Origin: Verrucomicrobiota bacterium | Lineage (GTDB): Bacteria; Verrucomicrobiota; Verrucomicrobiia; Palsa-1439 | Direction of reading: 5' to 3' | Assembly (NCBI GenBank): GCA_003164675.1 | Contig: PLTX01000034.1 | Location: 9,680 to 73,679 of the forward strand | Length of the DNA: 64,000 bases | Shown: positions 11,333 to 41,378 of the stretch, one piece after another | How the letters are laid out: each line of letters starts with the position of its first letter | Numbering within the stretch: position 1 is the first letter of the stretch | The notes under the pieces: model-generated | Databases searched by the model: none | What the model saw: only the letters and a program-made list of their open reading frames with translations | What the model was told of the DNA's origin: nothing | Position numbers and translations under genes: made by a program

Positions 11333-12244
11333 TTAAAATGGATCATGTGTGTCGGAGATTCCGCCACCCAGACCTCCGTTTCCCAAGAGATTTGCCCGAG
11401 GTGTGCGACCATACCCAACCATGTCTCCGGACTGGCCGCTCGATGTGAAGATCGTCACAGTCTGCGGCTTAATTCTCGTTTTGACCGCATGAATGATGAC
11501 GTTCTCCTGCAAGACATCGGCGTCATTGAACGCAGCCTTTCGTGACTCGAAGAGATGGATGGACCTAATAGCCATCTCGTCCAGAAAGAATCGGCGAAAT
11601 GGCGCGTGATACGGGCCGTTGCAAAAACTGCGCGGCGTGATCGCCACCAATTCTCCATCGTCCGCCACCAGCTTCACAACAAGCCCGAGAAAGGCAGTGT
11701 AGAGATTGACGACCGGCAATCCCACGCCCTCAAGGTGCTTTCGATCCGCCGAATTCGTGGCGATTTTACGATAGGGTGGATTCAGGATTGCCGCATCGTA
11801 ACGCTGGCGCTCGCTGCCAAAAAGGTCATCCCGCAACGCCAAGCTCGCATCGGAGATGAAGTCAGTGCGGTGAATCACATGCGAAAAGTAAACGCCGACT
11901 CTAGCAAGATGTTTAGCACAAAGCTCCAGCGTGTCGTGCAAGTGGTTGGCAAGCTCTGGATCAATCTCGAATGCGTCCACATGAAGCGACGTAGGCCGCT
12001 CGTCGCTCTGAAGAATCCGTTCGACGACAGCAGCGGTCAACGATCCGATTCCCGCGCCCGGGTCGAGCAAACGAATTGAGGCGCGATGCAGCGACAGTCT
12101 CTCTGCCATCAACTTCGCGACGAAATGCGGTGTTAGGATTTGCCCCAAGTTTGACCGTTGTTTGAGGTCAAGGCGGTTCGTGGCTGCTACCCGCGCGATG
12201 TCGACGGTTTCGCCCAAATCTGCTAGTGCGACGCTCGCATGCAT
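11333..12244 (-). CDS. Gamma-class N6-adenine DNA methyltransferase catalytic domain (Eco57I/TaqI-like); target-recognition domain absent, possibly truncated
   Basis: [16 protein letters not shown] (motif X), [10 protein letters not shown] (motif I/FxGxG) and ILNPPYRKI (motif IV NPPY). At 303 aa it ends shortly after the catalytic core with an atypical tail [16 protein letters not shown]. Confidence 0.7.
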
Positions 12245-17653: not shown

Positions 17654-18253
17654 CTACGAGGGGTTAGTAGCTGCGACGTTTTGTGCGTCGCGTATAACTT
17701 CGTAAACGGTGCCCGAGTCTTGAATTAAGTCGAAGCAAGGAAAAGAGAATTGGCCAGCGTTAGGTGACGCCAGTCGCCAGGATCGCATCGGTCCTCCGCG
17801 CTCTGCGGGCCCAAAAATGATCGTCCCCGACCCATCTGATTTCTGTTCCAGAGAGAGGTCGGTTATCGTACGCAAGTTTATGGATTTTACGGTGTGGCCA
17901 AAAAGTCCCGAAATAATCAGACAGCGCTGGTTTGTGACCCCGTAACAAGTTCTCTCCCTCAACTTGGCGTCGTATATAAAGCGCCCGAACATCATGTAGA
18001 GACCGACCGCCACAAACGGAATTCCCCATAGCCTCATGAAGATTGGGCCACCTGTCTTGATTGCCATTGCCTCCCAGAAAATGGCAAATCCACCCCACAG
18101 GATGCTAAATGGTATTGTAGCCATGTCAGACTTGCGCAACCTGATGCCTTGCAACGGACTGCCGCTCCAAAGCAATTTCTCACCCGATCCCAGTTCCGCC
18201 GAGACGACTGAGTTCGAGTCCGTCCAAATTACTTGTCCAGAGATAGCTCTCAC
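17654..18253 (-). CDS. Hypothetical membrane protein (2 TM + soluble C-domain; possibly bPH_2/DUF304-like), low GC
   Basis: The TM helices are IPFSILWGGFAIFWEAMAI and LWGIPFVAVGLYMMFGRFIY. GC is visibly lower than in the flanking obg and midA-like genes. Confidence 0.4.
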   Translation of the reverse strand: MRAISGQVIWTDSNSVVSAELGSGEKLLWSGSPLQGIRLRKSDMATIPFSILWGGFAIFWEAMAIKTGGPIFMRLWGIPFVAVGLYMMFGRFIYDAKLRERTCYGVTNQRCLIISGLFGHTVKSINLRTITDLSLEQKSDGSGTIIFGPAERGGPMRSWRLASPNAGQFSFPCFDLIQDSGTVYEVIRDAQNVAATNPS

Positions 18254-18318: not shown

Positions 18319-19410
18319 TCATGAGCCAATCTTCCTCTGCACGAGCACCTGGAACGTCCGGCCCATCATTTCGGGATGGAGAAGTTGCTGGATCGCCGCG
18401 CGTTCTTTGCTGGGTTGGCCGGCGGTGCGTTCGACAATCTCGGCAATCTCGGCCTCTCCGATCTGCAACAGGTAGTGTGACTGGTCGGTGAACAAAATCG
18501 GTTCAAGCCCGAGCTTCTTGCCATGTTCGATCAACGAGGTGAATTCGACGTGCGCCGTCATGTCTTGTTCGCCAATGTGCGCATACGGATTCTCGCTCTT
18601 GGTGTGTCGGAAATAGCACAGCAACGTGCCGTCGCGATGGTGCGGCGCGAAATACCTAGGCCGCTCGTAACCGTAGTCGATGGTGACGATCCACCCGCGT
18701 TTCAGTCGCTTTGCCACGTCCGCGAGCCAATCCATGGCGCGCAAGTTCACCTCGGTGCGATAGCCTTCCATGTGCTGAACGGGCAGGTCGCTCAGAAAGT
18801 CCGCCAGACGCGGCGTCGAGAGCGGCCCGAGGACTTCTTCAAAGAGCTTCAACCCCTCACCCGAACCCTCTCCCCCAAGGGGAGAGGGGCGAAGACTTCG
18901 CACATACACCTCCTGCCACGTTCCATCTTTTACCTGAACAACGTGAACCGGCAACGCGTCGAGAAACTCGTTGGAGAACACGCAACCGACAATCGAATCG
19001 GGAAGGGAATCACCCGTCTCGATGATGCGATATCGCAGGTCCGGGGTAGCCGCGAGGACGTCGGCGCGCAATTGGCCACGGTGTCCGCCAAACTCGACAA
19101 CCTCGAACTCGGCCGGGTTGCCCAATTCTCCTCGAAAATTCAGAAACTGTTTCGCGAGCAGTTTTCCAAACAGTGGCCCAACGCTCACGCTGGTGAAGAA
19201 ATCGCCGTGTTTCCCGACCTTTTCGCGACTGCCGATGTAATATCCGACTTGGGGGTGATACAGCGCCAGTTCCATGAATCGCTCGAAAGTGATCCGCCCG
19301 CCGCCCGCGTCGATTTCGCGCCGGATTTCACGAACCAAATCGGGATTGCCGTCCACGCGCCCACGATAGCCGAGCCGCGCGCGTGGATGAAGCCGAAAGA
19401 ACACTTGCAA
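18319..19410 (-). CDS. SAM-dependent methyltransferase, MidA/DUF185 family (NDUFAF7 homolog)
   Basis: ITFERFMELALYHPQVGYY..., VVEFGGHRGQL, FSNEFLDALPVH and IDYGY are MidA hallmarks. It is divergent from nuoA. Confidence 0.8.
   Translation of the reverse strand: MQVFFRLHPRARLGYRGRVDGNPDLVREIRREIDAGGGRITFERFMELALYHPQVGYYIGSREKVGKHGDFFTSVSVGPLFGKLLAKQFLNFRGELGNPAEFEVVEFGGHRGQLRADVLAATPDLRYRIIETGDSLPDSIVGCVFSNEFLDALPVHVVQVKDGTWQEVYVRSLRPSPLGGEGSGEGLKLFEEVLGPLSTPRLADFLSDLPVQHMEGYRTEVNLRAMDWLADVAKRLKRGWIVTIDYGYERPRYFAPHHRDGTLLCYFRHTKSENPYAHIGEQDMTAHVEFTSLIEHGKKLGLEPILFTDQSHYLLQIGEAEIAEIVERTAGQPSKERAAIQQLLHPEMMGRTFQVLVQRKIGS
18844..18881. repeat. REP-like palindromic element (family A: ccctcac...ccctctcccc-loop-ggggagaggg) embedded in-frame in the MidA-like CDS
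   Basis: A 10-bp perfect stem ccctctcccc/ggggagaggg with a caa loop at 18857-18879, preceded by cccctcaccc. It is translated as PSPLGGEGSGEG in the host gene. Confidence 0.6.
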
Positions 19411-19494
19411 GCGGTGCGAGTTTTGGTAGGTTCCTTGTGAAAAATGTCACAAAGTCCACCTGTTGGCGTGACGGGCGAACCGAGTGTAGTTTTC

Positions 19495-19965
19495 ATGGCT
19501 GAGCAATTACAACAGTACGTGCCTGTCGGGCTTCTATTGCTGGTTGCAATTGGATTTGCCGCCGCCGCCATGCTGGCGCCGCTGATTATCGGCAAGCCAC
19601 GCGTCCACGACCCGATCAAGGACAGCGCGTACGAGTGCGGTCTGCCGCCGATGGCCGATGCGCACACGCGTTTCAGCGTCAAATTCTACCTCATCGCGAT
19701 GTTGTTCATCATATTCGACATCGAAGTGGTGTTCATGTTGGGATGGGGCGCGGTGTTCCGCGACTTGATCAAACCCGTCGCCGAAGGCGGCATCGGTATA
19801 AAAATGCTGTTGGGGGCGCTGCTGTTTCTCGGAATTCTCGAAGTCGGCCACATTTACGCCTGGAAAAAGGGCGCACTCGACTGGGCTCCGCGCAAGGAAC
19901 GCATGCCCGAGCCAAAACCCGTTGCAGCGAAGGGAGAGAAGAAGCCGGAGTTGGTAGCGTCATGA
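19495..19965 (+). CDS. nuoA: NADH-quinone oxidoreductase subunit A
   Basis: YECGLPP...[25 protein letters not shown] is the NuoA signature. The ORF opens at 19444 but the ATG at 19495 is the likelier start. Confidence 0.8.
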
Positions 19966-20546
19966 GCCAACGGCTCGAAACCGGATTCGACCCCAAGGTG
20001 GAAGGCCGAGACGTGATTGTCACAAGCGTGGATGCCGCGATCGACTGGGTCCGCAAAAACTCCTGCTGGCCGATGCCGATGGGTCTCGCTTGTTGCGCGA
20101 TCGAATTGATGGCCGCGGGCGCCAGCCGCTTCGATATCGCGCGGTTCGGCTCGGAAGTGATGCGCTTCTCGCCGCGACAGTCCGACCTGATGATCGTGGC
20201 CGGCACCTGCGTGTACAAAATGGCGGGCGTGGTCAAGCGCGTATGGGACCAGATGCCCAACCCGAAGTGGTGTATTGCGATGGGCGCGTGTGCCAGTTCG
20301 GGCGGCATGTATCGCAGCTACGCCGTCGTGCAAGGGGTGGACCATTTTCTGCCCGTGGACGTGTATATCTCCGGTTGCCCGCCGCGTCCCGAAGCGCTCC
20401 TGGAAGGTTTGATGGCGATCCAGCGCAAGATCGCCCACGAGAAGGCCGTCGTGAATATGAAAAAGGGTGATGGCCCCGGGATTTCCGCTCCCATCAGCGG
20501 ACCGATCATCGTGCGTGGCGAATACGCGCCGAAGCTCAGGGGTTGA
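19962..20546 (+). CDS. nuoB: NADH-quinone oxidoreductase subunit B
   Basis: [15 protein letters not shown]...GTCVYKMAG...[12 protein letters not shown]...[16 protein letters not shown] overlap with nuoA. Confidence 0.9.
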
Positions 20547-20553
20547 CGACACG

Positions 20554-21186
20554 ATGACCCTGCAAGCGGCCATCGACAGATTGAAGGTGCGACTCGGGGA
20601 AGCGGTTTCCGGCCCCGTCGAATTCCGCGGCGAAACCACCCTCACCGTGTCGCCCGGGAAGATTGTCGCCGCCTGCGAATTCTTCAAGAAGGAATGCGGC
20701 TTCGACATGCTGACGGACCTTTCGGGCGTGGACAATTACGGCGAGGACCCGAGATACGAGGTCGACTACCTGTTGTACTCGCTGGCGCAACGGTGCCATG
20801 TGCGGTTGAAGGTGCGTGTGTCCGAGGAGGACATGGTGGTGGACAGCGTCACCAGCGTCTGGCGGGGAGCGGATTGGCACGAGCGCGAAGCGTTCGACAT
20901 GTTCGGCATCCGCTTTCGCGGACACCCGAACTTGAAACGCATCCTGATGTGGGAAGGCTATCCGCATCATCCGTTGCGAAAAGACTTCCCGCTCGCCGGC
21001 ATCCCGGCCGAACTGCCGGAGTCGGCGGTCAATGCCGACACGGTGCGCAGCGCGCCGATGTTGGGCGGGCCGTTCGTGGCTTCCGATGGCACGCGCAGTT
21101 CGATCCGCCGCGAGCCGCGCCAGTACGACACCCTTGCCGAGCGACAGGAGAAACTGGCGCACCCGACAAAGAAGGAATCGGTATGA
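20554..21186 (+). CDS. nuoC: NADH-quinone oxidoreductase subunit C
   Basis: WHEREAFDMFGIRFRGHPNLKRILMWEGYPHHPLRKDFPL. Confidence 0.85.
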   Translation: MTLQAAIDRLKVRLGEAVSGPVEFRGETTLTVSPGKIVAACEFFKKECGFDMLTDLSGVDNYGEDPRYEVDYLLYSLAQRCHVRLKVRVSEEDMVVDSVTSVWRGADWHEREAFDMFGIRFRGHPNLKRILMWEGYPHHPLRKDFPLAGIPAELPESAVNADTVRSAPMLGGPFVASDGTRSSIRREPRQYDTLAERQEKLAHPTKKESV

Positions 21187-21254: not shown

Positions 21255-22493
21255 ATGACCACGAAGCATGAAATGGAGTTGATCGATTCCGCCGCTCGCG
21301 CGCAGCAGGTGATGGAAGAAGAGCTGGCCGGCGAGAAGATGGTCATCAACATGGGGCCGCAGCACCCGAGCACGCACGGGGTGTTGCGCGTCGTGCTCGA
21401 ACTCGACGGCGAAGAGATCGTCAACGCCTGGCCGGATGTCGGTTACCTGCATCGCGGCGACGAGAAGATCGCCGAGAACATGACGTACACGCAGTTCATT
21501 CCGTATACCGACCGCCTCGATTATCTGGCGCCGCTGGCCAACAATGTCACCTATGCCTACGCCGTCGAGAAACTGCTGGGGATGGATGTGCCGCCGCGCT
21601 GCAAATACATTCGCGTCATCTGCGCGGAACTCGCGCGTATCAGTTCGCATCTGCTCGGCCTGGGCAGCTTCGGCATGGATGTCGGGGCGATGACCGTGTT
21701 CCTCTACACGTTTCGCGAACGCGAGAAGATTTACGACATGGCCGAATGCATCAGCGGCGCGCGGTTCACGACCAGCTACACCCGCATCGGCGGACTGGCG
21801 CACGATATGCCGCCGGAGTTCGTGCCGATGCTGCGCAAGTTTCTGAAGGAATTTCCTGCGACCATTGATGAGGTCGACAAACTGCTCACGCGCAATCGAA
21901 TTTTCTGCGAGCGCGCGCGTGGGATCGGGATGCTTACGAAGGCAGACGCGATTGATCTCGGAGTCACGGGTCCATGCCTGCGCGGATCGGGCGTGGATTG
22001 GGATATCCGCAAGGCACATCCCTACAGCAGCTATGAGGATTTCGAATTTGAGGTGCCCCTTGGCTCGGTCGGGGACAGTTACGACCGCTATCTGGTGCGC
22101 ATGGAGGAGATGCGGCAGAGCGTGCGCATTCTCCAGCAGGCCATCGATAATCTGCCCGATGGCCCGGTGAATTCGCCGGACGCCAAGATTCTGCTGCCGG
22201 ACAAGGAAGCCGTGCTGACGAAAATGGAGGAGTTGATTCATCACTTCATCAACGTCACGGAAGGCATCAACGCGCCTCCGGGCGAGGTCTATTTCTCCGC
22301 GGAAAATCCGAAGGGCGAACTCGGGTTCTACATCGTCAGTAAAGGAGGCGGCACGCCACATCGCTTGAAGATTCGTTCACCGTCGTTCGTCAACCTGCAG
22401 GCGCTGCCCATCATGGCCAAAGGCCACATGATGAGCGACATGGTCACCATCCTCGCGAGCCTCGATTTCGTGATGGGAGAGTGCGACCGGTAG
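21255..22493 (+). CDS. nuoD: NADH-quinone oxidoreductase subunit D
   Basis: INMGPQHPSTHGVLRVVLELDGE and the C-terminus of the 49-kDa subunit. Confidence 0.9.
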   Translation: MTTKHEMELIDSAARAQQVMEEELAGEKMVINMGPQHPSTHGVLRVVLELDGEEIVNAWPDVGYLHRGDEKIAENMTYTQFIPYTDRLDYLAPLANNVTYAYAVEKLLGMDVPPRCKYIRVICAELARISSHLLGLGSFGMDVGAMTVFLYTFREREKIYDMAECISGARFTTSYTRIGGLAHDMPPEFVPMLRKFLKEFPATIDEVDKLLTRNRIFCERARGIGMLTKADAIDLGVTGPCLRGSGVDWDIRKAHPYSSYEDFEFEVPLGSVGDSYDRYLVRMEEMRQSVRILQQAIDNLPDGPVNSPDAKILLPDKEAVLTKMEELIHHFINVTEGINAPPGEVYFSAENPKGELGFYIVSKGGGTPHRLKIRSPSFVNLQALPIMAKGHMMSDMVTILASLDFVMGECDR

Positions 22494-22508: not shown

Positions 22509-24320
22509 ATGGCACTGAACGTTCCAACAGAACTCGAGCAGCACATCGACGAGGTCATCACGCACTACCCGCAGCAGCACAAACGGGCGGCGGTGCTGTG
22601 GCTGTTGCATCTTTTGCAGGAACATTTCGGCCACCTCGGCAAGGAGCAGGTCGAGTGGACCGCGACAAAACTCGGCTTGCAGCCGATCAACGTGTGGGAG
22701 TTGATCACGTTCTACCCGATGTTCACGGCCAAACCGCGGGGCAAGTTCCACATCAAGGTGTGCCGCACGCTTTCGTGCGAACTCTGCGGTTGTGGCGGCA
22801 TCCTCGAACGATTGCAAAGGAAACTCGGCGTCAAGCCGGATGAGAACACGAGCGATGGTCTGTTCACGATTTCCACGGTCGAATGTCTGGCGGCCTGCGG
22901 CACCGGCCCGGTGATGATGGTCAACGACGAGTTGTTTGAAAACCTCACGCCCGACAAGGCCGAGGCGATCATCAACCGGATCAAGACCACGGGCAAACTG
23001 GAGCCGCAACCATTGCCGCCCGTATTGCCCGCTCATCCGTTGGAGAAGCGCGTCCTGCTGGCCAACATGAGCAAGCCCGGGTACAAGGGCGCGATCGAGG
23101 ACTACATTCGCGAGGGCGGCTATAAGGCGTTGCCGAAAGCGCTCGGCATGAAACCCGAAGAGATCGTGGCCGAGGTCAAGAACAGCGGGGTTCGTGGGCG
23201 AGGCGGCGCGGGTTTCCCCTGCGGCATGAAGTGGAGTTTTCTCGCCAAGGGCGCCGGCCAGCCAATTTATCTGGTTTGTAACGCCGACGAGTCTGAGCCC
23301 GGCACGTTCAAGGACCGGCAGCTTCTCCATTACGATCCGCACCAGCTTATCGAAGGCATCCTCGTATCCTGCTACGCCGTCGGCGCGCATGCCGCATACA
23401 TTTACATCCGGGGCGAGATGCCCTATGGCGCGAAGATTCTCATCAGGGCCATCGAAGAGGCGCGCGCAAGGAATTTCCTGGGTAAGAACATTCTTCGCAA
23501 GGGGTTCGACTGCGAGATTTTCGTGCATCGAGGCGCGGGCGCGTACATCTGTGGTGAGGAAACCGGTCTCATTGAATCGCTGGAAGGCAAGCGCGCTTAT
23601 CCGCGCATCAAGCCGCCGTTCCCGGCGGTGGTCGGACTGTTCGGCTGTCCGACCGTCGTGAACAACGTCGAGACACTGTCGAATATCCCGCATATCATCA
23701 ACAATGGCGCGGCGTGGTTCAGGGGAATGGGGGTGCCCGGCTCCACCGGCACGCGCTTGGTTTGCGTCAGCGGCCCGGTGAAACGGCCCGGCTACTACGA
23801 GTTCGAGATGGGCAAGCTGACGATGCGCCAACTCATTTACGATTTGTGCGGCGGACTCCAGGAGGGTCGCCAACTGAAGGGCGTTGTGCCGGGCGGCAGC
23901 TCGATGCCCGTGCTGAAAGCCGACCAGATTGATGTGGCGCTGGATTTCGAATCACTCCGCAAGGCCGGCACGATGGCCGGCTCGGGTGGCGTGATCGTGC
24001 TGGATGATACGGTCGATATCGTGCAGAGCACGCTCAATGTCGCGCAGTTTTACGCGCACGAATCCTGCGGCCAGTGCACGCCGTGCCGCGAAGGCACGCT
24101 GTGGATGGAGAAAATGCTCCACCGCGTCAAACACGGCCACGGTCGCCCCGAAGACGTGGATTTGCTGTGGGACGTCGCCGACAACGTCGACGGCAAGACG
24201 ATCTGCCCGCTCGGCGAAGCGGTCGCCTGGCCCGTGAAAGCTTTCGTCACGAAATACCGCGGCGAGTTTGAGAAGGCATGCAAGAAGAATGGAAAGGAAG
24301 CCACAGATGAACACAGATAA
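22509..24320 (+). CDS. nuoEF: Fused NADH-quinone oxidoreductase subunits E and F (NuoE-NuoF single polypeptide)
   Basis: The N-terminal 160 aa is NuoE (2Fe-2S Cys: CRTLSCELCGCGG ... CLAACGTGP). A linker leads into NuoF (GRGGAGFPCGMKW, FMN/NADH sites, ESCGQCTPCREG 4Fe-4S). 603 aa with no internal stop. Confidence 0.85.
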   Translation: MALNVPTELEQHIDEVITHYPQQHKRAAVLWLLHLLQEHFGHLGKEQVEWTATKLGLQPINVWELITFYPMFTAKPRGKFHIKVCRTLSCELCGCGGILERLQRKLGVKPDENTSDGLFTISTVECLAACGTGPVMMVNDELFENLTPDKAEAIINRIKTTGKLEPQPLPPVLPAHPLEKRVLLANMSKPGYKGAIEDYIREGGYKALPKALGMKPEEIVAEVKNSGVRGRGGAGFPCGMKWSFLAKGAGQPIYLVCNADESEPGTFKDRQLLHYDPHQLIEGILVSCYAVGAHAAYIYIRGEMPYGAKILIRAIEEARARNFLGKNILRKGFDCEIFVHRGAGAYICGEETGLIESLEGKRAYPRIKPPFPAVVGLFGCPTVVNNVETLSNIPHIINNGAAWFRGMGVPGSTGTRLVCVSGPVKRPGYYEFEMGKLTMRQLIYDLCGGLQEGRQLKGVVPGGSSMPVLKADQIDVALDFESLRKAGTMAGSGGVIVLDDTVDIVQSTLNVAQFYAHESCGQCTPCREGTLWMEKMLHRVKHGHGRPEDVDLLWDVADNVDGKTICPLGEAVAWPVKAFVTKYRGEFEKACKKNGKEATDEHR

Positions 24321-24561
24321 ACGCAGATGTTGTAGCGGCACTTCTGCGAAGCGCCGATCTGTGTCCCATCGGTGTAAATCTGTGGCTGACAAGACCGCGA
24401 TTCGTTGGGTGACTGCTCCGCAATCATCGTTACCCGGCGCGCCCGCCGTCCAGGGTGTTGCCCTTGCGCCCGGCAAGGATGTGGAGTGGTTCTGGACGCA
24501 CACGCCCAGCGGCAGCTACGTCAGCGGGTACAACATCGTTCGGGCGCGGACTCCCAAAGCT

Positions 24562-24646
24562 GTCATTCTGAGCGAAGCGAAGAATCTCAGTCGTTCCGGT
24601 CGCGCAGGGAAACGACAGAGACCCTTCACTGCGCTCAGGGTGACAG
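24562..24646. repeat. MITE-like element family B (imperfect TIRs gtcattctgagcgaagcgaagaatctc / gagacccttcactgcgctcagggtgac; 'HPERSEGS'-type repeat) in the nuoEF-nuoG spacer
   Basis: About 85 bp. A near-identical copy is at 27985..28074. It translates as HPERSEGS in one frame, which accounts for the spurious ORFs 24430..24681(-) and 27807..28025(+). Confidence 0.65.
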
Positions 24647-24669
24647 ACTCTGAAATCGAGTGATCGAGA

Positions 24670-26376
24670 ATGGCAGAGCAAACAGTCAAACTAACGATCG
24701 ACGGCAAAGAGGTCGCAGCCCCGAAGGGAATGAACCTGATCGAGGCGGCGAAGCTCGCGGGCATCGAGGTGCCGCATTATTGCTATCACCCGAAGCTGGC
24801 GGTGGTCGGCAACTGCCGCATGTGCCTCGTCGACGTCGGCATGCCGAAGATGGGCCTCGACAAGAAGCCGGAGATCGGCCCGGACAGTAAGCCCGTGATC
24901 ATGTTTGGGCCGAAACTTACCATCGGCTGCAATACGTCCGTTGCCGAAGGCATGGTCGTGCACACGCGTTCGCCGAAAGTGATCAAGGCGCGGGAAGGCG
25001 TGATGGAGTTTCTGCTGATCAATCACCCGCTCGATTGTCCGATCTGCGACCAAGCGGGCGAATGCCGGCTGCAGGAGTTCAGCGTCGACTACGGCAAGGG
25101 CCAGAGCCGTTTTGTGGAAGAAAAGGTCCACAAACCGAAGAAGACGGAAATCGGCCCGAAGATCATGCTCGACGACGAGCGATGCATCCTTTGCTCACGG
25201 TGCGTCCGCTTCATGAGGGACGTGGCGGGTCAGGATTGTCTGGGTTTCGTGAATCGCGGCAGTTATTCCACACTCACCTGTTACCCCGGCATGGAACCGA
25301 ACACGAATTACGATCTCAATATCACCGACATTTGCCCCGTCGGCGCGCTCACAGCGAATGACTTCCGTTTCAAACAGCGCGTGTGGTTCCTCAAGGAGAC
25401 CAAGAGCGTGTGCCCAAATTGCGCGACGGGCTGCAATACCGTCTTGTGGTCGCGGGAAGGCGTCGTGCACCGACAGACGCCGCGCGACAATGATGCGGTC
25501 AATCAATGCTGGATGTGCGATTCGGGCCGGCTACACTACAAGTTTATCAATGATCCCCATCGCATTACCACGCCGACCGTAAAGTCGTCGGCGATGGGCG
25601 AGCGCCTTGCTTTGACGTGGCCCGAGGCGACGCGGCAAATCGCGGAGAAACTTATGCCGCTGAAGGGCAAGGGGTCGACAATCGCGGCCATCGGGACCGC
25701 GCGCGCGACGACCGAGGAGCTGTTCCTGTTCAACAAACTCATGCGTGAAATTCTGGGCGCCGAGTTGGTGGATTGCGTGCCCCACGTTGGCGAAGCCGAT
25801 AAATTCCTGCTCGATGCCGACCGCAATCCAAACACGAATGGCGCGAAGCTAACAGGCGTTGCGGGCGAACCGATTGGCAGCCGGATTCCGGCCATTGCCG
25901 AAGCAATCAAGTCGGGCAAGATCAAGACGCTCATCGTTCACGGCGAGAATGTTGTGAAATACGGGGTCACGGAGGAATTGCTCGCGAAGTTGGATTTGCT
26001 GGTGGTCATCGACACCCTGCCAAACAAGGTGACGGAACTGGCGCACTATGTCTTGCCCGGCGCGACCTTCGCGGAAAAGCGCGGCACGTTCATTAATGCC
26101 AGGAACCGCCTGCAACGCTTGAACGCGGCGATCCCATCGCCCGGCATCGCGCGGCCGGAATGGCAGACGTTCGCGGCGCTGCTGAACGAACTGGGCGGTG
26201 ATGGCGGCTACCTGACGATTGAAGATGTGTTCGCCGACATGGCGCGCTTGCTCGCGCCGTTGGCAGGACTGAATCTTTCCAAGATTGGCGATCTCGGTGT
26301 TGAACTGAAGCCCGCGACCGAAACAAAAGGTGAGGCGAAGACCGAGTCCACCGCCGCCGCGGGAGCGAAGACATGA
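24670..26376 (+). CDS. nuoG: NADH-quinone oxidoreductase subunit G (short 75-kDa form)
   Basis: 2Fe-2S N-terminus (YCYHPKLAVVGNCRMCLVDV), HPLDCPICDQAGECRLQ, CILCSRCVRF. Confidence 0.9.
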   Translation: MAEQTVKLTIDGKEVAAPKGMNLIEAAKLAGIEVPHYCYHPKLAVVGNCRMCLVDVGMPKMGLDKKPEIGPDSKPVIMFGPKLTIGCNTSVAEGMVVHTRSPKVIKAREGVMEFLLINHPLDCPICDQAGECRLQEFSVDYGKGQSRFVEEKVHKPKKTEIGPKIMLDDERCILCSRCVRFMRDVAGQDCLGFVNRGSYSTLTCYPGMEPNTNYDLNITDICPVGALTANDFRFKQRVWFLKETKSVCPNCATGCNTVLWSREGVVHRQTPRDNDAVNQCWMCDSGRLHYKFINDPHRITTPTVKSSAMGERLALTWPEATRQIAEKLMPLKGKGSTIAAIGTARATTEELFLFNKLMREILGAELVDCVPHVGEADKFLLDADRNPNTNGAKLTGVAGEPIGSRIPAIAEAIKSGKIKTLIVHGENVVKYGVTEELLAKLDLLVVIDTLPNKVTELAHYVLPGATFAEKRGTFINARNRLQRLNAAIPSPGIARPEWQTFAALLNELGGDGGYLTIEDVFADMARLLAPLAGLNLSKIGDLGVELKPATETKGEAKTESTAAAGAKT

Positions 26377-27410
26377 TTCCATTGCTGCTCATTCATCTCA
26401 TCAAGATTGCCTGTGTCATCGGTGTGATGCTTGGCATCGTTGCCTACACCGTGCTGGCGGAACGCAAGATTTGCGCGTGGATGCAGGATCGCATCGGTCC
26501 CAATCGGGTCGGGCCATTCGGCCTTTTGCAGCCCGTAGCCGATGGTTTGAAGTTCATTTTCAAAGAGGACGTGCTTCCGCATCACGTCAACAAGGTGTAT
26601 TTCACATTGGCACCCATGATTGCCATGATCCCCGCGCTGATCACGATCGCGGTGGTGCCGTGGGGTAGCCAGTTGGTGATTCCCAGCGTGTCGCACGATC
26701 CGATCCCGGGCGTGATTGCCAACCTGAATGTCGGCATCCTGTTCGTGTTCGCCATTTCCTCACTCGGCGTGTACGGCATCGTGCTGGCGGGATGGTCGAG
26801 CAACTCGAAGTATCCGTTCCTCGGCGGCATCCGATCGAGCGCGCAGATGATTTCCTACGAAGTTTGCCTCGGATTGAGCGTGGTACCGGTGTTCATGCAG
26901 GTCGGCTCGCTCAATCTCATGAAGGTGGTTGAATACCAGGCGCAGCACACATGGCTGGGGTTCACCCAGCCGCTGTCGTGTTTCATTTTCCTTGTGAGCG
27001 CGTTTGCCGAGACCAACCGCCTGCCGTTCGATTTGCCGGAGGCGGAACAGGAACTGGTCGGCGGATACCACACCGAGTACAGCTCCATGAAGTTCGCGAT
27101 GTTCTTTCTCGGTGAGTACGCCGCGATGTTCATGGCCTCGGCGCTGATGGCGACGCTGTTTTTCGGCGGTTGGTCGCTGCCGTTCGCGCCGTTCAACGCG
27201 CCCGCGCAAACCTTGACGGTGGGTTTGATTCACATCGGCATCTTCCTGGCGAAGGTGTGCGGTTTCCTGTTCTTCTTCATTTGGGTGCGGTGGACGATCC
27301 CGCGATTCCGTTATGACCAACTGATGACGTTGGGATGGAAGATATTCATCCCGCTGACGCTGTTGAATATTCTCATTTCCGGAGTCGTGCTGGCGGTGAT
27401 CACGAAATGA
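26373..27410 (+). CDS. nuoH: NADH-quinone oxidoreductase subunit H
   Basis: [32 protein letters not shown], polytopic membrane protein. Confidence 0.9.
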
Positions 27411-27973
27411 CCATGCAAGTCGAACGTCCAAAACTGACGATTTGGGAGCGGACGTATCTCCCGCAGATTCTGCACGGGCTGTGGTTGACGTTGAAACACA
27501 TCCCGCAGCGAAAGTTTACTCGTCAATATCCGGAGGAGAAACCGCCGCTCCATGGCGCGTATCGCGGCGCGCCGACGTTGGTCAAGGACCCGGAGGGGCG
27601 GGTCAAATGCGTTTCGTGCCAGTTGTGCGAATTCGTCTGTCCGCCGAAAGCGATCCGCATCACCCCGCGCGCGCGACCGGAGGATGTTCCGGACGCCAAT
27701 GTCGAAAAAGAACCCGAGGATTTCGTCATCGATATGTTGCGCTGCATTTATTGCGGGTACTGTGAGGAAGTGTGTCCCGAGGAAGCAATTTTCCTGAAGC
27801 AGGATTTTGCCATCGCGGGCTACACGCGCGAAGAATTGCGGTTTCACAAGGAGAAGTTGCTGGAATTGGGAGGCGTGCAACCGGACTCCATTTGGAAATG
27901 GAAATTCAAGGGGGCGCCGCCGCTGGATGCGCCGGGTGCGCCGAAGCGTGAGGGGGCTGGTCGGAAAGGATGA
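27407..27973 (+). CDS. nuoI: NADH-quinone oxidoreductase subunit I
   Basis: Two 4Fe-4S motifs CVSCQLCEFVCP and CIYCGYCEEVCP. ATGA overlap with nuoH. Confidence 0.9.
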   Translation: MTMQVERPKLTIWERTYLPQILHGLWLTLKHIPQRKFTRQYPEEKPPLHGAYRGAPTLVKDPEGRVKCVSCQLCEFVCPPKAIRITPRARPEDVPDANVEKEPEDFVIDMLRCIYCGYCEEVCPEEAIFLKQDFAIAGYTREELRFHKEKLLELGGVQPDSIWKWKFKGAPPLDAPGAPKREGAGRKG

Positions 27974-27984
27974 ATTCCCGATTT

Positions 27985-28074
27985 GTCATTCTGAGCGGAG
28001 CGAAGAATCTCAGTCGTTGAACTGATGGACAAAACGGCGAACAACAGAGACCCTTCGCTGCGCTCAGGGTGACA
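27985..28074. repeat. MITE-like element family B, second copy, filling the nuoI-nuoJ spacer
   Basis: gtcattctgagcggagcgaagaatctcagtcgtt...agagacccttcgctgcgctcagggtgaca. Confidence 0.65.
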
Positions 28075-28084
28075 ACGTAAAGAG

Positions 28085-28585
28085 ATGAACATGTACGACA
28101 TACTGTTCTGGTTTTTCAGCATCGCGATGCTGGTGTGCGGGTTGTTGGTGATTGCCAACCGCAATCCCGTCGCCAGCGCGCTGTTTCTCGTGCTGCTGTT
28201 TGTGTTCCTAGCCGGTCTGTTTGTCCTGCTCGAAGCGTTCTTCATCGCGGCGATCCAGGTGCTGGTGTATGCGGGCGCGATCATGGTGTTGTTCCTGTTC
28301 GTCATCATGTTGCTGGATATCAAGGCCAGCGAGCGCCGAAAGTTCCGGGCACTCGGTGTCGTTGGCGGAATCGCGGTGGCCGTGGCGTTCGTGTGGGAAT
28401 TGGTGATCATCCTCACCCGACCGCTGAAACCCCTGGCCACCGGCGGCGACGAACTGAGCGGCGGTCTGGAGCAGGTCGTCAAACCGCTGTTTGCCAATTA
28501 TATGTTGCCATTCGAGGTGACGGCGCTGCTGCTGCTGGTGGCGATGATCGGCGTGGTCTTGCTTTCCAAGAGGGAACTCAAGTGA
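28085..28585 (+). CDS. nuoJ: NADH-quinone oxidoreductase subunit J
   Basis: 166 aa polytopic membrane protein in the nuo gene order. Confidence 0.8.
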   Translation: MNMYDILFWFFSIAMLVCGLLVIANRNPVASALFLVLLFVFLAGLFVLLEAFFIAAIQVLVYAGAIMVLFLFVIMLLDIKASERRKFRALGVVGGIAVAVAFVWELVIILTRPLKPLATGGDELSGGLEQVVKPLFANYMLPFEVTALLLLVAMIGVVLLSKRELK

Positions 28586-28893
28586 CCAGCGCGATCACCC
28601 TCAATGATTATCTGATCGTCAGCGGATTGCTGTTCGCGCTCGGGATCGCCGGCGTGATCATCCGTCGCAATGCGCTCGTTATCTACATGGCGCTGGAGAT
28701 GAACCTCAATGCGGCGAATCTCGCGCTCATCGCGTTTTCCAAATTCAACAAGCTGGTCGAGGGCCAAATTCTGGTGTTCTTCGTCATTGCCATCGCGGCA
28801 GCGGAAGTCGCGGTCGGTTTGGCAATCATCGTGGCATTGTACCGCCGGAAACAAACCATCAGCGTGGACCAACTGACGACAATGCGGCTATGA
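28582..28893 (+). CDS. nuoK: NADH-quinone oxidoreductase subunit K
   Basis: GTGA overlap with nuoJ. LNDYLIVSGLLFALGIAGVIIRRNALVIYMALEMNLNAANLALIAFS is the typical NuoK sequence. Confidence 0.85.
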   Translation: MTSAITLNDYLIVSGLLFALGIAGVIIRRNALVIYMALEMNLNAANLALIAFSKFNKLVEGQILVFFVIAIAAAEVAVGLAIIVALYRRKQTISVDQLTTMRL

Positions 28894-30779
28894 ATCACTT
28901 GATCTACCTGTACGGCACCGACTGGGGCATGGGACAGTTTCCCATCTGCTCAGTTTGGATGATTCTTTTCACCCCGCTGGTGGCCGCCGCGCTGATTACG
29001 TTGCTCACAGGAAGGCAGAAAGGGCTGAGCGCCGCGTTGTCCATCGGCGCCATCTTGATTTCCTTCGCATTGTCGCTACGGCTGTTCCTGCTGTTTGCCC
29101 TCAAAGGCATCCAGCACCACCCGCATCCGATCCAGTGGCTTGTCGTAGGCAACACGGTTCGCATCAATTTCGGGATGACAACCGATGCGCTGGCTTTGTT
29201 GATGTTGCTGGTTGTCACCGGCGTTGGGTCGGCGATTCACATCTATTCGCTCGGCTACATGAAAGGCGACCCCGGCTTCTCGCGGTTCTTCGCCTGCATG
29301 TCGCTGTTCACTTTTTCGATGCTGGGGATCGTGATTTCGAGCAACTTCATCCAGATCTTCATCTTTTGGGAACTGGTCGGCGTGAGCAGCTATCTGCTGA
29401 TCGGTTACTGGTTCGAGAGACCCAGCGCCGCCGACGCCGGCAACAAAGCGTTTCTCACCACGCGCATCGGCGACGTCGGAATGATGCTGGGCATTCTGCT
29501 GCTCTGGTCGCATGCGCACACGTTCGAATTCACCGAATTGAAGGCGAAACTGCCGACGCTCGGTTTGCCGGTTGGCACCCTGGCGCTGATCGGCGCGTTG
29601 ATTTTCGCCGGCGCGGTGGGCAAGAGCGCGCAGGTGCCGTTGCACGTCTGGTTGCCGGATGCGATGGAAGGCCCGACACCCGTCAGCGCGCTCATTCATG
29701 CCGCAACGATGGTGGCAGCGGGCGTGTATATGCTCTGCCGCATCTCGTGGCTGATTCTGCCGAGTCAAACGGCCTTGTGGCTCATCGCCTGGATCGGCGC
29801 AATCACGGCGCTCATGGCGGCGACGATTGCCATCGCCCAGAACGACATCAAACGCATCCTGGCCTATTCGACGCTCTCGCAGCTCGGCTACATGGTGATG
29901 GCCGTCGGTCTCGGCGGGCCGACGCAGGCGATGTTTCATCTCACGACGCACGCGTTCTTCAAGGCGCTGCTATTCCTCGGCGCGGGCAGCGTGATCATCG
30001 CGCTGCACCACGAACAGGACATCTGGAAAATGGGCGGGTTGTGGAAGAAGACGCCGATCACGTTCTGGACATTCCTGATCGGCACGCTGGCCCTGGCTGG
30101 CGTGCCGCCGTTGAGCGGGTTTTACAGCAAGGACGAGATCTTGCTGCTGGCCATTGAGCGCAATCCGATGCTGTTTGTCATGGCCGTCGCGACGGCGTTT
30201 CTGACCGCCTACTACATGGGTCGCGAGGTGTTCGTGGTGTTCTTCGGCAAACCGCGCGACTACCACGCGTACGACCACGCGCAGGAATCGCCCTGGGTGA
30301 TGACGCTGCCGCTGATATTCCTGGCGGCGCTCTCGATTGTCGCCGGCTGGTACAGCAAAGTGCCCGACTTCCTCGGGCCGCCGCATGAAGCCCAGCGCCA
30401 TTCCTCATTGTTGACGGGCGGCCTGATCCTCGTGCCGTTGTTCGGTTTCCTTGTCGCGGCGAAGATTTATTGGAAGGCCGAACCGAGCGACGCGCCCGTG
30501 AAAGTCGCGCTCGGCAACCTCTGGACGCTGGTCGAGAACAAATACTATTTCGACGAGTTGTATCACTGGATCATCCAATACGTGCAGGGCACGATTGCGA
30601 TTGTATGTGATGTCTTCGACCGCTGGATACTTCAGCGGCTCGGCATCGGCGGCCTGTCGGTCGGCACGGGCCTGCTCGGGCGCACCGTGCGCCTCCTGCA
30701 AACCGGCAGCATCTCCGGCTACGCCTTCCTCATCGGCCTCGGCGTGACGGTAATTATTTATTATGCGGTGGTGAGGTGA
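28890..30779 (+). CDS. nuoL: NADH-quinone oxidoreductase subunit L
   Basis: 629 aa antiporter-like subunit (WLPDAMEGPTPVSALIHAATMV). Confidence 0.9.
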   Translation: MNHLIYLYGTDWGMGQFPICSVWMILFTPLVAAALITLLTGRQKGLSAALSIGAILISFALSLRLFLLFALKGIQHHPHPIQWLVVGNTVRINFGMTTDALALLMLLVVTGVGSAIHIYSLGYMKGDPGFSRFFACMSLFTFSMLGIVISSNFIQIFIFWELVGVSSYLLIGYWFERPSAADAGNKAFLTTRIGDVGMMLGILLLWSHAHTFEFTELKAKLPTLGLPVGTLALIGALIFAGAVGKSAQVPLHVWLPDAMEGPTPVSALIHAATMVAAGVYMLCRISWLILPSQTALWLIAWIGAITALMAATIAIAQNDIKRILAYSTLSQLGYMVMAVGLGGPTQAMFHLTTHAFFKALLFLGAGSVIIALHHEQDIWKMGGLWKKTPITFWTFLIGTLALAGVPPLSGFYSKDEILLLAIERNPMLFVMAVATAFLTAYYMGREVFVVFFGKPRDYHAYDHAQESPWVMTLPLIFLAALSIVAGWYSKVPDFLGPPHEAQRHSSLLTGGLILVPLFGFLVAAKIYWKAEPSDAPVKVALGNLWTLVENKYYFDELYHWIIQYVQGTIAIVCDVFDRWILQRLGIGGLSVGTGLLGRTVRLLQTGSISGYAFLIGLGVTVIIYYAVVR

Positions 30780-32332
30780 TGGCGCAACTTCTCACCATCG
30801 CCGTCCTGCTCCCGCTGATTGCGGCGTTTGTGTTGTTCCTGTTTCCGGCGAACAACCCGAAGGCGATTCGGGCGCTGGCGATCTTTGCCACGGGCGTGTC
30901 GCTGCTGATCACGCTAACGCTGTTTGCGGGGTTTGACCGGACCAAGAGCGGATATCAATTCGTCCACAGTATCCCGTGGCTGCCGAGTTACGGCTGCTCG
31001 CTGAAATTCGGCGTGGACGGCATTTCGATGACGTTGCTGTTGCTGGTTGGGTTCGTATCGTTTTGCGGATCGTTCATTTCCAGCGAAATCCACGAGCGCG
31101 AGAAGGAGTACTACATTCTGTTTCTCGTGTTGACGACGGGCATTAGCGGGACGTTCGCGACGATGGACCTGTTTTTCTTCTATTTCTTCTACGAGCTGGC
31201 GGTGATCCCGATGTACCTGTTGATCGGCATGTGGGGATCGCTGCCGCCGGGCAAGCATGGGCGCACGAAAGAGTACGCAACGATGAAGTTGACGCTGTAT
31301 CTGACGGCGGGCGCGGTGCTGGCGTTGATCGGGCTGCTGGGCATCTACTTCGTGGGCGGCACCTTGGACATCGAGCGGTTGCAGCACAACATCTGGTTGG
31401 CGCGGAGCACTCAAATGTGGGCGTTCCCGTGTTTGCTGTTCGGATTCGGCTTCCTGGCGTCGATGTGGCCGTTTCACACTTGGTCGCCGCTCGGATACGC
31501 CGCCGCGCCGACCGCGGCTTCGATGATGCACGCGGGCGTGCTGAAAAAGCTCGGCGCGTACGGCATCATTCGGCTGGCGCTGCCGCTCCTGCCCGAAGGC
31601 GCGCGGCATTGGGCCAATCTCCTCGCGATCCTGGCGTGTTTCAACATTCTGTATGCCGGCTGGGCGGCGTTGACCCAGAAGGACTGGAAATTCGTCATCG
31701 GCTACAGCTCGGTGAGCCACATGGGTTACGTGTTACTGGGAATCGCCACGCTGAACGTCGTCGGCGTAAGCGGGGCGGTGCTGCTGATGTTTGCGCATGG
31801 GGTGATGGCGGCGCTGACGTTCTCGTTGATCGGCTTTTTTTACCATCAGACGCACAATCGGTTCGTGCCCGACCTCAGCGGGCTCGCGCGCAAGATTCCG
31901 TTCATCGGCACGTGCATGGTGATGGCGGTGATGGCGTCGAGCGGGTTGCCCGGCTTTGCCAATTTCGCCAGCGAAGTGTTGGTATTCCTGGGTTCGTGGC
32001 AGCAGGGATCGACGCTGTTTCGCGTGGCGACAATCTGCGCCGTGTGGGGCATTGTCGTGACGGCGACCTACCTGCTGCGGGCGGTGCGGACGAGTTTCTT
32101 CGGGCCGTTCGATGAGAAATGGTCGATGCTCAAGGACGCGGTGACTTTCAAACAGAAGTTCCCGTACGCGTTGCTTCTGGCGGTTTTGTTGACGGTCGGC
32201 TTTTATCCGCGGCTGCTGACGGACATCATCAAACAAAGCGTGGCGACATCCATCGTCAACCGCTTGTCCACGGGTAACGAAGCGAATGCCGCGTCCGCGG
32301 ACACAGCCAACAATGGCAGGACGACGCCATGA
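30776..32332 (+). CDS. nuoM: NADH-quinone oxidoreductase subunit M
   Basis: 518 aa antiporter-like subunit. Overlaps nuoL by 4 nt. Confidence 0.9.
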   Translation: MMAQLLTIAVLLPLIAAFVLFLFPANNPKAIRALAIFATGVSLLITLTLFAGFDRTKSGYQFVHSIPWLPSYGCSLKFGVDGISMTLLLLVGFVSFCGSFISSEIHEREKEYYILFLVLTTGISGTFATMDLFFFYFFYELAVIPMYLLIGMWGSLPPGKHGRTKEYATMKLTLYLTAGAVLALIGLLGIYFVGGTLDIERLQHNIWLARSTQMWAFPCLLFGFGFLASMWPFHTWSPLGYAAAPTAASMMHAGVLKKLGAYGIIRLALPLLPEGARHWANLLAILACFNILYAGWAALTQKDWKFVIGYSSVSHMGYVLLGIATLNVVGVSGAVLLMFAHGVMAALTFSLIGFFYHQTHNRFVPDLSGLARKIPFIGTCMVMAVMASSGLPGFANFASEVLVFLGSWQQGSTLFRVATICAVWGIVVTATYLLRAVRTSFFGPFDEKWSMLKDAVTFKQKFPYALLLAVLLTVGFYPRLLTDIIKQSVATSIVNRLSTGNEANAASADTANNGRTTP

Positions 32333-33780
32333 TGAGCCTGTATGCCATCCAGTTGGAGTGCCTGATCTCGATCTGGGGAATCCTGATTCTGCTCGTGGAT
32401 GCGTTCAAGCCGATCCCGAACAAGCGGACAGTGGGATATCTGGCGGCCGGGTTCGTAGCCGTGGCGCTGCTGTACAGTTTTGCGATGCAGCCTGTGCCGG
32501 ACACATTCTTTCATGGGATGTTCCGCCTCGACCCGTTCGCGTTGTATTTCAAGCGGCTGTTCCTGTTGGCGCTGGCGGCGGTGCTCCTGATGGCAGCGGA
32601 GTTTTCGCCGCGCATCGAATCGGGCGTGGCCGAATTCTATGCGCTGCTGATGTTCTGCGCGGTGGGAATGCTGCTGATCGCGTCCGTGAATGATTTCATC
32701 CTGCTGTTCGTGTCGCTGGAGTTGGTCACCATTACGTTCTACGTGCTCGCGAGCTATCTGCGGCGGCAGATCCCGTCCCTGGAAGCAGGAACGAAATACC
32801 TGATCCTCGGCGCGCTCTCCAGCGGGTTCACGGTGTACGGCATCGCCTACATCTTCGGGACGACCGGCACGACGAACTTCGACAAACTCGCCGAGATTCT
32901 CAACTCCCAGACGGGACCGCCGGCCTCGGCGTTCATTTTCGGCATGTTGCTGGTGTTGACCGGTCTCGGATTCAAGATTGCCAGCGTCCCGTTCCAGGTT
33001 TGGGCGCCGGATGTGTACCAGGGCGCGCCAACGCCCGTGACGGCATTTCTCGCCGTGGGCAGCAAGGCGGCGGGGTTTGCGCTGCTGTTGCGTGTCTTGT
33101 ACACAGGACTGCTCCCCGTGAGCCTGTCCTGGAACGCGCTGATTGCCGTCCTCGCAGGCGCGACCCTGCTCTATGGAAATCTGGGCGCCATTCCGCAGCA
33201 TAATATCAAGCGACTGCTGGGCTATTCGTCGATCGGACACGCGGGCTACATGCTGATGGGGGTCGCGGCGGTCAACGCGCTTGGCGCGGGCGCGGTGCTG
33301 TTCTACCTGGGCCAATACGCCTTCACCAATCTCTGCGCGTTCCTGGCGATCATCGCGGTGACGGCGGCGACGGGCAGCGATGAAATCCCCAGTTTCTCGG
33401 GTCTCGGCAAACGCTCGCCGATTCTCGGCCTGGCGTTGTTCCTGTCGATGATGTCGTTGGCAGGCATCCCGCCGTTGAGCGGGTTTTTCGGCAAGTTCCA
33501 GTTGTTCGCCGCAGTGGTCCAACGGGCGCAGACGGATTCGAAGTATTATGTGCTGGCGGCCATTGGCGCCGTGGCGGTGGTCATCTCGCTGTACTTTTAT
33601 CTCGGCGTGGGGCGCGCGATTTACCTGCAGGAGGCCGAGGACGCCACGCCGATCGTTGTCAGCAAACCGATGCGGTTCGGGTTGGTCGTGTGCATGGTGG
33701 CGATGATCGGGATCGGGATTTTCCAGCGTCCGCTGGTTCACGCGTCGATAATGGCTGCAAAGGTCTTTTCCTTGCATTAG
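32329..33780 (+). CDS. nuoN: NADH-quinone oxidoreductase subunit N
   Basis: 483 aa antiporter-like subunit (FQVWAPDVYQGAPTPVTAFL). Confidence 0.9.
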   Translation: MMSLYAIQLECLISIWGILILLVDAFKPIPNKRTVGYLAAGFVAVALLYSFAMQPVPDTFFHGMFRLDPFALYFKRLFLLALAAVLLMAAEFSPRIESGVAEFYALLMFCAVGMLLIASVNDFILLFVSLELVTITFYVLASYLRRQIPSLEAGTKYLILGALSSGFTVYGIAYIFGTTGTTNFDKLAEILNSQTGPPASAFIFGMLLVLTGLGFKIASVPFQVWAPDVYQGAPTPVTAFLAVGSKAAGFALLLRVLYTGLLPVSLSWNALIAVLAGATLLYGNLGAIPQHNIKRLLGYSSIGHAGYMLMGVAAVNALGAGAVLFYLGQYAFTNLCAFLAIIAVTAATGSDEIPSFSGLGKRSPILGLALFLSMMSLAGIPPLSGFFGKFQLFAAVVQRAQTDSKYYVLAAIGAVAVVISLYFYLGVGRAIYLQEAEDATPIVVSKPMRFGLVVCMVAMIGIGIFQRPLVHASIMAAKVFSLH

Positions 33781-41331: not shown

Positions 41332-41378
41332 TGATCCTCTCCCCCGAGGGGAGAGGAGAACGCCCTCCTACCAGGCTG
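41332..41378. repeat. REP-like palindromic element family A, intergenic copy
   Basis: gcccctcacc..tcctctcccc-cga-ggggagagga..gccctcc, a 10-bp perfect stem with a 3-nt loop. Confidence 0.6.

Follow-up and report, generated by a model that had tools for sequence, protein, structure and literature searches.

What does a protein methyltransferase gene of the MidA/NDUFAF7 family do beside the complex I (nuo) operon of a bacterium? The question is raised by contig PLTX01000034.1 of a Verrucomicrobiota bacterium (assembly GCA_003164675.1), of which positions 9,680 to 73,679 were analysed; this whole stretch of 64,000 nucleotides is called the window here. In mitochondria, NDUFAF7 (human) or MidA (Dictyostelium discoideum; PDB 5ZU0, 5ZTZ and 5ZZW) symmetrically dimethylates Arg85 of the complex I subunit NDUFS2. 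In the window an intact open reading frame (ORF) of the same family is transcribed away from nuoA, which has a complete nuo operon behind it. Judged from its sequence, the encoded enzyme is a trimmed variant of the MidA/NDUFAF7 family, and by analogy with its mitochondrial relative the gene product most likely acts on NuoD, either modifying or chaperoning this 49-kDa subunit, whose gene is 2 kb away. The divergent arrangement had been pointed out in a first-pass annotation of this DNA and is borne out by the Pfam matches of both genes (PF02636 on the minus strand and PF00507 on the plus strand).

The product of the ORF matches PF02636 (Methyltransf_28, covering MidA, NDUFAF7 and DUF185) with E=1.4e-49 and a score of 169.3 bits, the cut-off being 23.3, and the match is split into two stretches because of an internal deletion. 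More than 4,800 homologs of the protein were detected. The best of these, at least 120 with 58-100% identity, all share the deletion, and those with a named source come from metagenome-assembled genomes of Verrucomicrobiia/Verrucomicrobiae. Homologs carry the label 'SAM-dependent MidA family methyltransferase' at the Joint Genome Institute (JGI), SAM being S-adenosylmethionine. Among 78 members of the clade 60 alignment columns are invariant. With the clade alignment as input, AlphaFold2 gave a model with a predicted local distance difference test (pLDDT) score of 84 and a predicted template modelling (pTM) score of 0.84, in which residues 1-15 are disordered. The model has the class I (seven-β-strand) methyltransferase core together with the inserted loops and the C-terminal helical region that are specific for the family.

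In a Foldseek search the six best PDB matches of the model all belong to COG1565/MidA/DUF185, with template modelling (TM) scores of 0.68-0.75, and the next matches are generic methyltransferases at about 0.3. The closest structures are those of the functionally uncharacterised Burkholderia thailandensis COG1565 protein (4F3N and the ligand-bound 4G67; TM 0.75), which is also the best sequence match (E=7e-40, 140 bits for 4F3N). They are followed by Dictyostelium MidA (5ZU0 and 5ZTZ; TM 0.71-0.72, E=3e-21, 62 bits in the sequence comparison) and by the alphaproteobacterial MidA of R. palustris (Q6N1P6, DUF185, 1ZKD chains A and B; TM 0.68-0.70, 73 bits, 24% identity). In 87 canonical relatives there are 85 columns with a conservation of 80% or more, and the window protein is identical at 79 of them. 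The family residues that are kept comprise E106, G108, G112 and E131 as well as the motifs GDF-x-T, SNE-x2-DA-x-PVH, DYG and G-x-QD-x-T-x-HV-x-F. The acidic residue at the end of β2, the ribose ligand in class I methyltransferases, is E131 in YRIIE, with a conservation of 90% or more both within the clade and among the canonical relatives. The SAM-contacting residues of MidA are placed here from general knowledge of the fold.

The presumed substrate retains the residue on which the mitochondrial enzyme acts, although it is another one than had been proposed. The first-pass annotation had seen the context of the methylated arginine in HGVLRVV (STHGVLRVVLELDGE). This assignment was wrong, as the bovine modified peptide is KCDPHIGLLHRGTEK (residues 75-89), in which Arg85 of the HRGxE motif is symmetrically dimethylated (PMC3750175). 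The arginine of HGVLRVV is NuoD Arg45, the counterpart of bovine Arg63, and the published bovine peptide rules out HGVLR as methylation site. The true counterpart of bovine Arg85 is NuoD Arg67 in NAWPDVGYLHRGDEK (GYLHRGDEK), where 8 of 15 residues are identical to the bovine peptide in register. The conclusion that NuoD keeps the target arginine was therefore right, and alignment to NDUFS2 confirms it for Arg67 in HRGxE. NuoD itself is well defined, its best PDB match being Nqo4 of T. thermophilus (E=1e-137), and all complete NuoD/NdhH proteins that were inspected at the linked loci described below have GYLHRG-x-EK or GFLHRG-x-EK.

The HRGxE motif adjoins the Fe-S cluster N2, and the dimethyl-arginine beside N2 is one of few conserved modifications of complex I, for which a role in assembly or in tuning of N2 is unsettled (PMC8042128). 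Symmetric dimethyl-arginine is known from bovine, human, Pichia and Paracoccus denitrificans complex I, with NDUFAF7 as the responsible enzyme. The Paracoccus case resembles the one described here, being a bacterial complex I in which the equivalent residue, Nqo4 Arg65, is symmetrically dimethylated (PMC3750175). In E. coli NuoCD the arginine is conserved as Arg249 and is unmethylated, and Thermus has a threonine at the equivalent position (PMC3750175). Retention of the arginine is necessary and not diagnostic of methylation, because E. coli keeps the same residue unmodified.

The strongest support for a function directed at complex I comes from the gene neighbourhood in other genomes. Loci were sampled from the nearest relatives of the window protein (35-82% identity), taking one genome per species and the best 80 loci. 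For 78 of these the neighbours were determined by tblastn with the Nuo proteins of the window, by an unbiased clustering of every ORF lying at most 4 kb away and by Pfam checks, with concordant results. Among these nearest loci NuoD/NdhH is the family that occurs most often within 4 kb (28 of 78), with NuoA (19) and NuoB (18) next. No unrelated family occurs at more than 11 loci, and these 11 belong to one cyanobacterial order; besides nuo/ndh no neighbour family is common across phyla.

The linkage takes a different form in each of three phyla. In Verrucomicrobiia midA is divergent from nuoA at four further loci (L004, L005, L008 and L027), to which look-ups of annotated genomes add two more (L084 and L085). 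At L009 midA is divergent from nuoB-C-D with no nuoA detected, at L010 and L011 a solitary nuoA is convergent with midA, and in one relative two genes lie between midA and nuoA. In 13 of 17 loci from Nitrospirota (L014, L016, L022, L024, L028, L038-L040, L046, L071 and L078-L080) midA immediately precedes nuoA-B-C-D-E/F-G in the same orientation, about 110-230 bp away from nuoA, and may be the first gene of the nuo operon. In Cyanobacteria a solitary ndhH is found on the same strand within 3.3 kb of midA in 11 of 38 loci (L018, L020, L026, L029, L030, L035, L047, L052, L059, L060 and L069), in 8 of these within 1 kb, and no other ndh gene is nearby. This arrangement predicts that the arginine in GYLHRGMEK of NdhH is a client of MidA. 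By our own estimate, one gene is expected by chance to have a particular gene of about 1.2 kb as a neighbour, at a distance of up to about 3 kb (3.3 kb), in about 0.1% of 6-Mb genomes. That three phyla nevertheless show three architectures, of which one is specific for the NuoD homolog, cannot reasonably be a coincidence. With NuoD/NdhH as the top neighbour family, the earlier suggestion of a function directed at complex I, drawn from the linkage to nuo, gains strong support. The linkage is recurrent and not universal.

A bacterial PF02636 gene clustered with a complex I operon has been described before, in the heliorhodopsin clade C11, where an 11-subunit nuo operon is followed by an NDUFAF7/PF02636 gene (bioRxiv 10.1101/2021.02.01.429150). 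Compared by arrangement, the gene lies there downstream in the same transcription unit as 11 subunits, whereas in the window it is divergent from an operon covering 14 functions with fused nuoE-F. Some of the relatives show peculiarities of their own. The solitary nuoA genes at L010 (2900-3337) and L011 (5613-6086) have no nuoB-N nearby; PF00507 was confirmed for that of L011, which overlaps midA by 4 bp. At L084 (ENA contig_34219, 924 kb) the nuo genes beside midA seem to be broken up: nuoB and nuoD are present as short pieces, the nuoD product has a match to the PDDEXK_3 domain, and midA is flanked by an IS110 transposase. A disrupted operon could account for this, as could an artefact of assembly or annotation.

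In the window midA and nuoA point away from each other on either side of a short spacer. It had been given as 85 bp, which nearly agrees with the 84 bp between TTG 19410 and ATG 19495; with other start codons it becomes 90 or 138 bp. In identical contigs the gene callers chose GTG 19404 for midA and ATG 19495 for nuoA, which gives the 90-bp spacer. The true spacer may be 138 bp, as distant homologs start with an ATG at the position of GTG 19356 (MDGNP...) and residues 1-15 of the model are disordered. A longer nuoA ORF starts at ATG 19444. This is unlikely to be the real start because the codon lies within a palindrome, and the start at 19495 is favoured.

This palindrome, TGTGAaaaatgTCACA (TGTGA-N6-TCACA), is perfect, corresponds to the consensus of a CRP-type operator and is centred 51.5 bp upstream of nuoA ATG 19495. 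In an alignment of the spacer from six species the flanks have diverged and TGTGA-N6-TCACA is perfectly kept. Exact copies occur in the midA-nuoA spacer of L001-L005, L008, L027 and L084, and that of L085 has one mismatch; in all 87 fetched loci (about 1.2 Mb) there is just one other exact match. The conserved sequence suggests that one putative regulator of the Crp/Fnr family serves both divergent promoters, and the shared promoter region assumed in the first-pass annotation is thereby supported. A simple sigma-70 scan found no site inside the spacer; such a scan is uninformative for this phylum. A second perfect TGTGA-N6-TCACA copy lies elsewhere in the window (11444-11459), inside the 3' part of an ORF on the minus strand (11333-12244) that contains an NPPY motif. 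This motif is typical of N6-adenine methyltransferases.

From these data we consider it fairly probable that the window encodes a MidA-type arginine methyltransferase which binds nascent NuoD, dimethylates Arg67 before NuoD pairs with NuoB, and is co-expressed with the nuo operon. By analogy with NDUFAF7 and Paracoccus Nqo4, the SAM-dependent enzyme would bind its client NuoD as it is newly made, and Arg67 in HRGxE would be symmetrically dimethylated. The modified NuoD would then be released and join NuoB in the assembly of the Q-module. As midA and the nuo operon are divergently transcribed from a short spacer with a conserved CRP-type palindrome, enzyme and substrate would probably be co-regulated by one regulator of the Crp/Fnr family.

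This reading meets a difficulty at the SAM-binding site, which differs from that of canonical relatives in two respects. Motif I is EFGGHRG and departs from the canonical E-x-G-x-G-x-G by a histidine in place of the central glycine. All 78 clade members have G108 and G112, and the conservation of H110 among them is 90% or more; canonical relatives read G-A-G-x-G. The second difference is the deletion, by which the αB helix and β3 (E-x-S-x2-L-x3-Q ... v-x-W), which normally follow β2, are absent from the window protein, both in an alignment of 84 sequences and in the model. The distance from E131 to N147 is 16 residues versus 36-50 in canonical relatives, the model has strands at 103-107, 127-130 (β2) and 140-147 (β4) with none between the last two, and the alignment to 4F3N falls into two stretches. 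In class I methyltransferases the αB-β3 unit normally helps to enclose the adenine of SAM. The first-pass annotation had made its proposal depend on the SAM-binding residues, and these are preserved in part: the central glycine is a histidine and αB-β3 is lost, but E106, G108, G112 and E131 are kept.

Both differences are found more widely. At the central position of motif I, the 142 nearest representatives at 50% identity together with the window protein have 90 glycines, 28 histidines and 13 asparagines, so that the central glycine, absent in 53 of 143 aligned sequences, is typical of the family and not strictly defining. Thirty relatives of full length ('long') have histidine or asparagine there too, and some short forms have the canonical GxGxG, so that from the alignment the two changes are separable and recurrent. 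Intermediate forms are present in other Verrucomicrobiia (L009-L011). A residue other than glycine would in addition be compatible with SAM binding, because human catechol O-methyltransferase (COMT) has a tyrosine at this position (motif I ELGAYCG, PDB 3BWM) and binds SAM. COMT is an unrelated small-molecule methyltransferase and serves as a precedent for the bulky central residue only, being silent on substrate or family. With histidine and asparagine common in near relatives and the tyrosine of COMT, His110 could not be sustained as proof of lost SAM binding. The histidine-containing motif may still bind SAM, and the window protein is probably active as a methyltransferase, although real doubt comes from the loss of β3.

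A number of observations weigh against methylation of NuoD by this enzyme. The histidine in motif I and the loss of αB-β3 make SAM binding uncertain, and retention of the target arginine is by itself uninformative, given the unmodified residue of E. coli. Identity to characterised or structurally known members is low, only 20-21% to Dictyostelium MidA and 28-29% to Burkholderia COG1565, values that are compatible with an NDUFAF7 ortholog or with a sister subfamily. Compared with the mitochondrial proteins, family, fold, orthologous presumed substrate and HRGxE arginine are the same. However, motif I reads GGHRG here and GPGRG there (as also in R. palustris), helix and β3 are deleted here, and the window gene lies beside the operon of its presumed substrate. 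Burkholderia COG1565 likewise differs by GAGTG and a full ELRARQRETL...VRWL segment. No nuo gene was found in the flanks of P0105 (64% identity), of the 'Lentisphaerae'-labelled L006 and L007 (56%), of relatives from Chthoniobacterales, Desulfuromonadales, Brocadiaceae and Dehalococcoidia, or of most cyanobacterial loci. In addition, the block with obg downstream of midA is syntenic in the clade too, so that adjacency within the clade is on its own weak proof of selection.

One alternative is a non-catalytic assembly factor, a pseudo-methyltransferase that would still recognise NuoD and act as its chaperone on the way into the Q-module, but would have lost SAM binding or methyl transfer by the exchange of glycine for histidine in motif I and the loss of αB-β3. 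His110 is nearly invariant and the β3 deletion is clade-wide, and the maintained linkage to nuo fits a role in binding as well as a catalytic one. However, pseudoenzymes usually drift at the very positions that are kept here, among the 79 of 85 family-conserved columns E106, G108, G112 and E131. The occurrence of both changes independently of each other and the SAM-binding tyrosine enzyme COMT also argue against it, and in Dictyostelium a methyltransferase-deficient MidA fails to rescue the knockout (review PMC9006661). We therefore regard a purely chaperoning role as quite unlikely. An active methyltransferase with another substrate, be it a protein, a ribosome-associated factor (in view of obg downstream) or a nucleic acid, is unlikely as well, if a little less so. 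The adjacency to nuo would then be inherited synteny without functional meaning, in line with the same-strand 199-residue ORF and obg that follow midA in a block syntenic in the clade, and with the many relatives that lack the linkage. One study reported DNA adenine and cytosine methylation upon expression of Wolbachia MidA in E. coli (PMC12455994). Against this stand the recurrence of nuo/ndh linkage in three phyla with differing gene orders, including cyanobacteria with ndhH alone, the low expectation for chance adjacency (about 0.1% per genome by our own estimate) and the lack of any other neighbour family common to the phyla. Moreover, no substrate of the family other than NDUFS2 has been established by experiment.

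Compared with canonical MidA, the gene has an internal deletion, and it also holds an in-frame insert derived from a repeat element; both could be taken as signs of a decaying gene, a relic broken by these events. This is extremely improbable, as the frame is intact, at least 120 homologs with 58-100% identity have the same deletion, 60 columns are invariant, the structure is predicted with confidence and the surface loop that holds the insert is variable. A pseudogene is effectively ruled out by this conservation. Methylation of Arg67 of NuoD by a trimmed MidA therefore remains the favoured reading. The coordinates of the features discussed are collected in the table.

Features of the midA-nuo locus in the window (strand given as + or -; a dot marks features without strand)
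Feature	Position	Strand	Details
midA-like gene	18319..19410	-	PF02636; possible starts TTG 19410 (363 amino acids), GTG 19404 (361 amino acids) and GTG 19356 (345 amino acids)
Motif I, E106-F-G-G-H110-R-G112	19075..19095	-	central Gly replaced by His, codon 19081-19083
Linker E131-TGDSLPDS	18994..19020	-	β2 leads directly to β4; site of the deletion of about 25-40 residues
In-frame surface-loop insert RSLRPSPLGGEGSGEGLKL	18844..18900	-	residues ~171-189; G/C-rich hairpin repeat
midA-nuoA divergent intergenic region	19411..19494	.	counted from TTG 19410 and ATG 19495
Perfect palindrome TGTGAaaaatgTCACA	19436..19451	.	TGTGA-N6-TCACA, CRP-type operator consensus
nuoA	19495..19965	+	156 amino acids, PF00507
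nuoB	19962-20546	+	
nuoC	20554-21186	+	
nuoD	21255..22493	+	presumed substrate; 412 amino acids, PF00346 E=2.7e-120; Arg67 codon 21453-21455
Rest of nuo operon after nuoD	22509..33780	+	
Fused nuoE-F	22509-24320	+	
nuoG	24670-26376	+	
nuoH to nuoN	up to ~33780	+	assigned from ORF size and order alone

The insert in midA derives from a hairpin repeat, CCCTCTCCCC-caa-GGGGAGAGGG at 18866-18888, of which a second copy is present in the window at 41335-41357; the repeat follows the pattern CCCCTCACC-n5-CCTCTCCCCC-r-AGGGGAGAGG. Confidence of the model is lower in this part. In homologs the insert at this loop varies in length from 0 to about 70 residues, and inserts rich in PSPxPSPPRGEG are found there and at two other loops. 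Because of these variable inserts, the loops concerned are hot spots for the repeat.

Some features of the surrounding genes were observed in addition. In the nuo operon, nuoE and nuoF form a single ORF of 603 amino acids with the 2Fe-2S thioredoxin-like and the 51-kDa domains, a fusion that also occurs in two relatives (L002 and L085). The gap between nuoF and nuoG (24321-24669) is unusually long with 349 bp and looks repeat-like, with spurious translations such as ...ILRFAQNDS... and ...CHPERSEGS... of the type seen in dispersed intergenic repeats. On the other side, the ORF of 199 amino acids between midA and obg (17654-18253, minus strand as midA) has no Pfam match; it is present in the identical contigs, and none was seen beside midA in L085.

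Much of the background to these results is already published, namely the family, its substrate, the bacterial roots of MidA, the methylation of the bacterial arginine in Paracoccus and one nuo-NDUFAF7 unit. The idea of a complex I-directed methylation in bacteria is therefore less new than the first-pass annotation implied, since the modification has been demonstrated in Paracoccus denitrificans. In the literature searched, no methylation of NdhH and no pairing of ndhH with midA in cyanobacteria was found, nor a description of the Nitrospira arrangement, of the G-x-H-x-G variant without β3 or of the conserved palindrome; a search on the gene context of COG1565/DUF185 returned nothing relevant. 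We tentatively suggest, as a possibility with somewhat less than even prospects, that MidA-dependent dimethylation or handling of the N2-proximal arginine is ancient and widespread beyond proteobacteria and mitochondria. It would include Verrucomicrobiota, Nitrospirota and, unexpectedly, the cyanobacterial NdhH of photosynthetic NDH-1, with Verrucomicrobiia using a minimal G-x-H-x-G enzyme that lacks β3.

For annotation the gain is small, as the gene is already called a MidA-family methyltransferase by JGI, and the finding, while testable, will not surprise a specialist on complex I. If MidA indeed serves NuoD/NdhH in three more phyla, the modification would be older and broader than the picture of a 'proteobacterial origin' holds, and cyanobacterial NDH-1, for which cryo-electron microscopy maps exist, would be worth inspecting for it. 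With its trimmed form, the enzyme of the Verrucomicrobiia would then be a natural minimal scaffold on which to find out what parts of MidA are required to bind SAM and to recognise NuoD.

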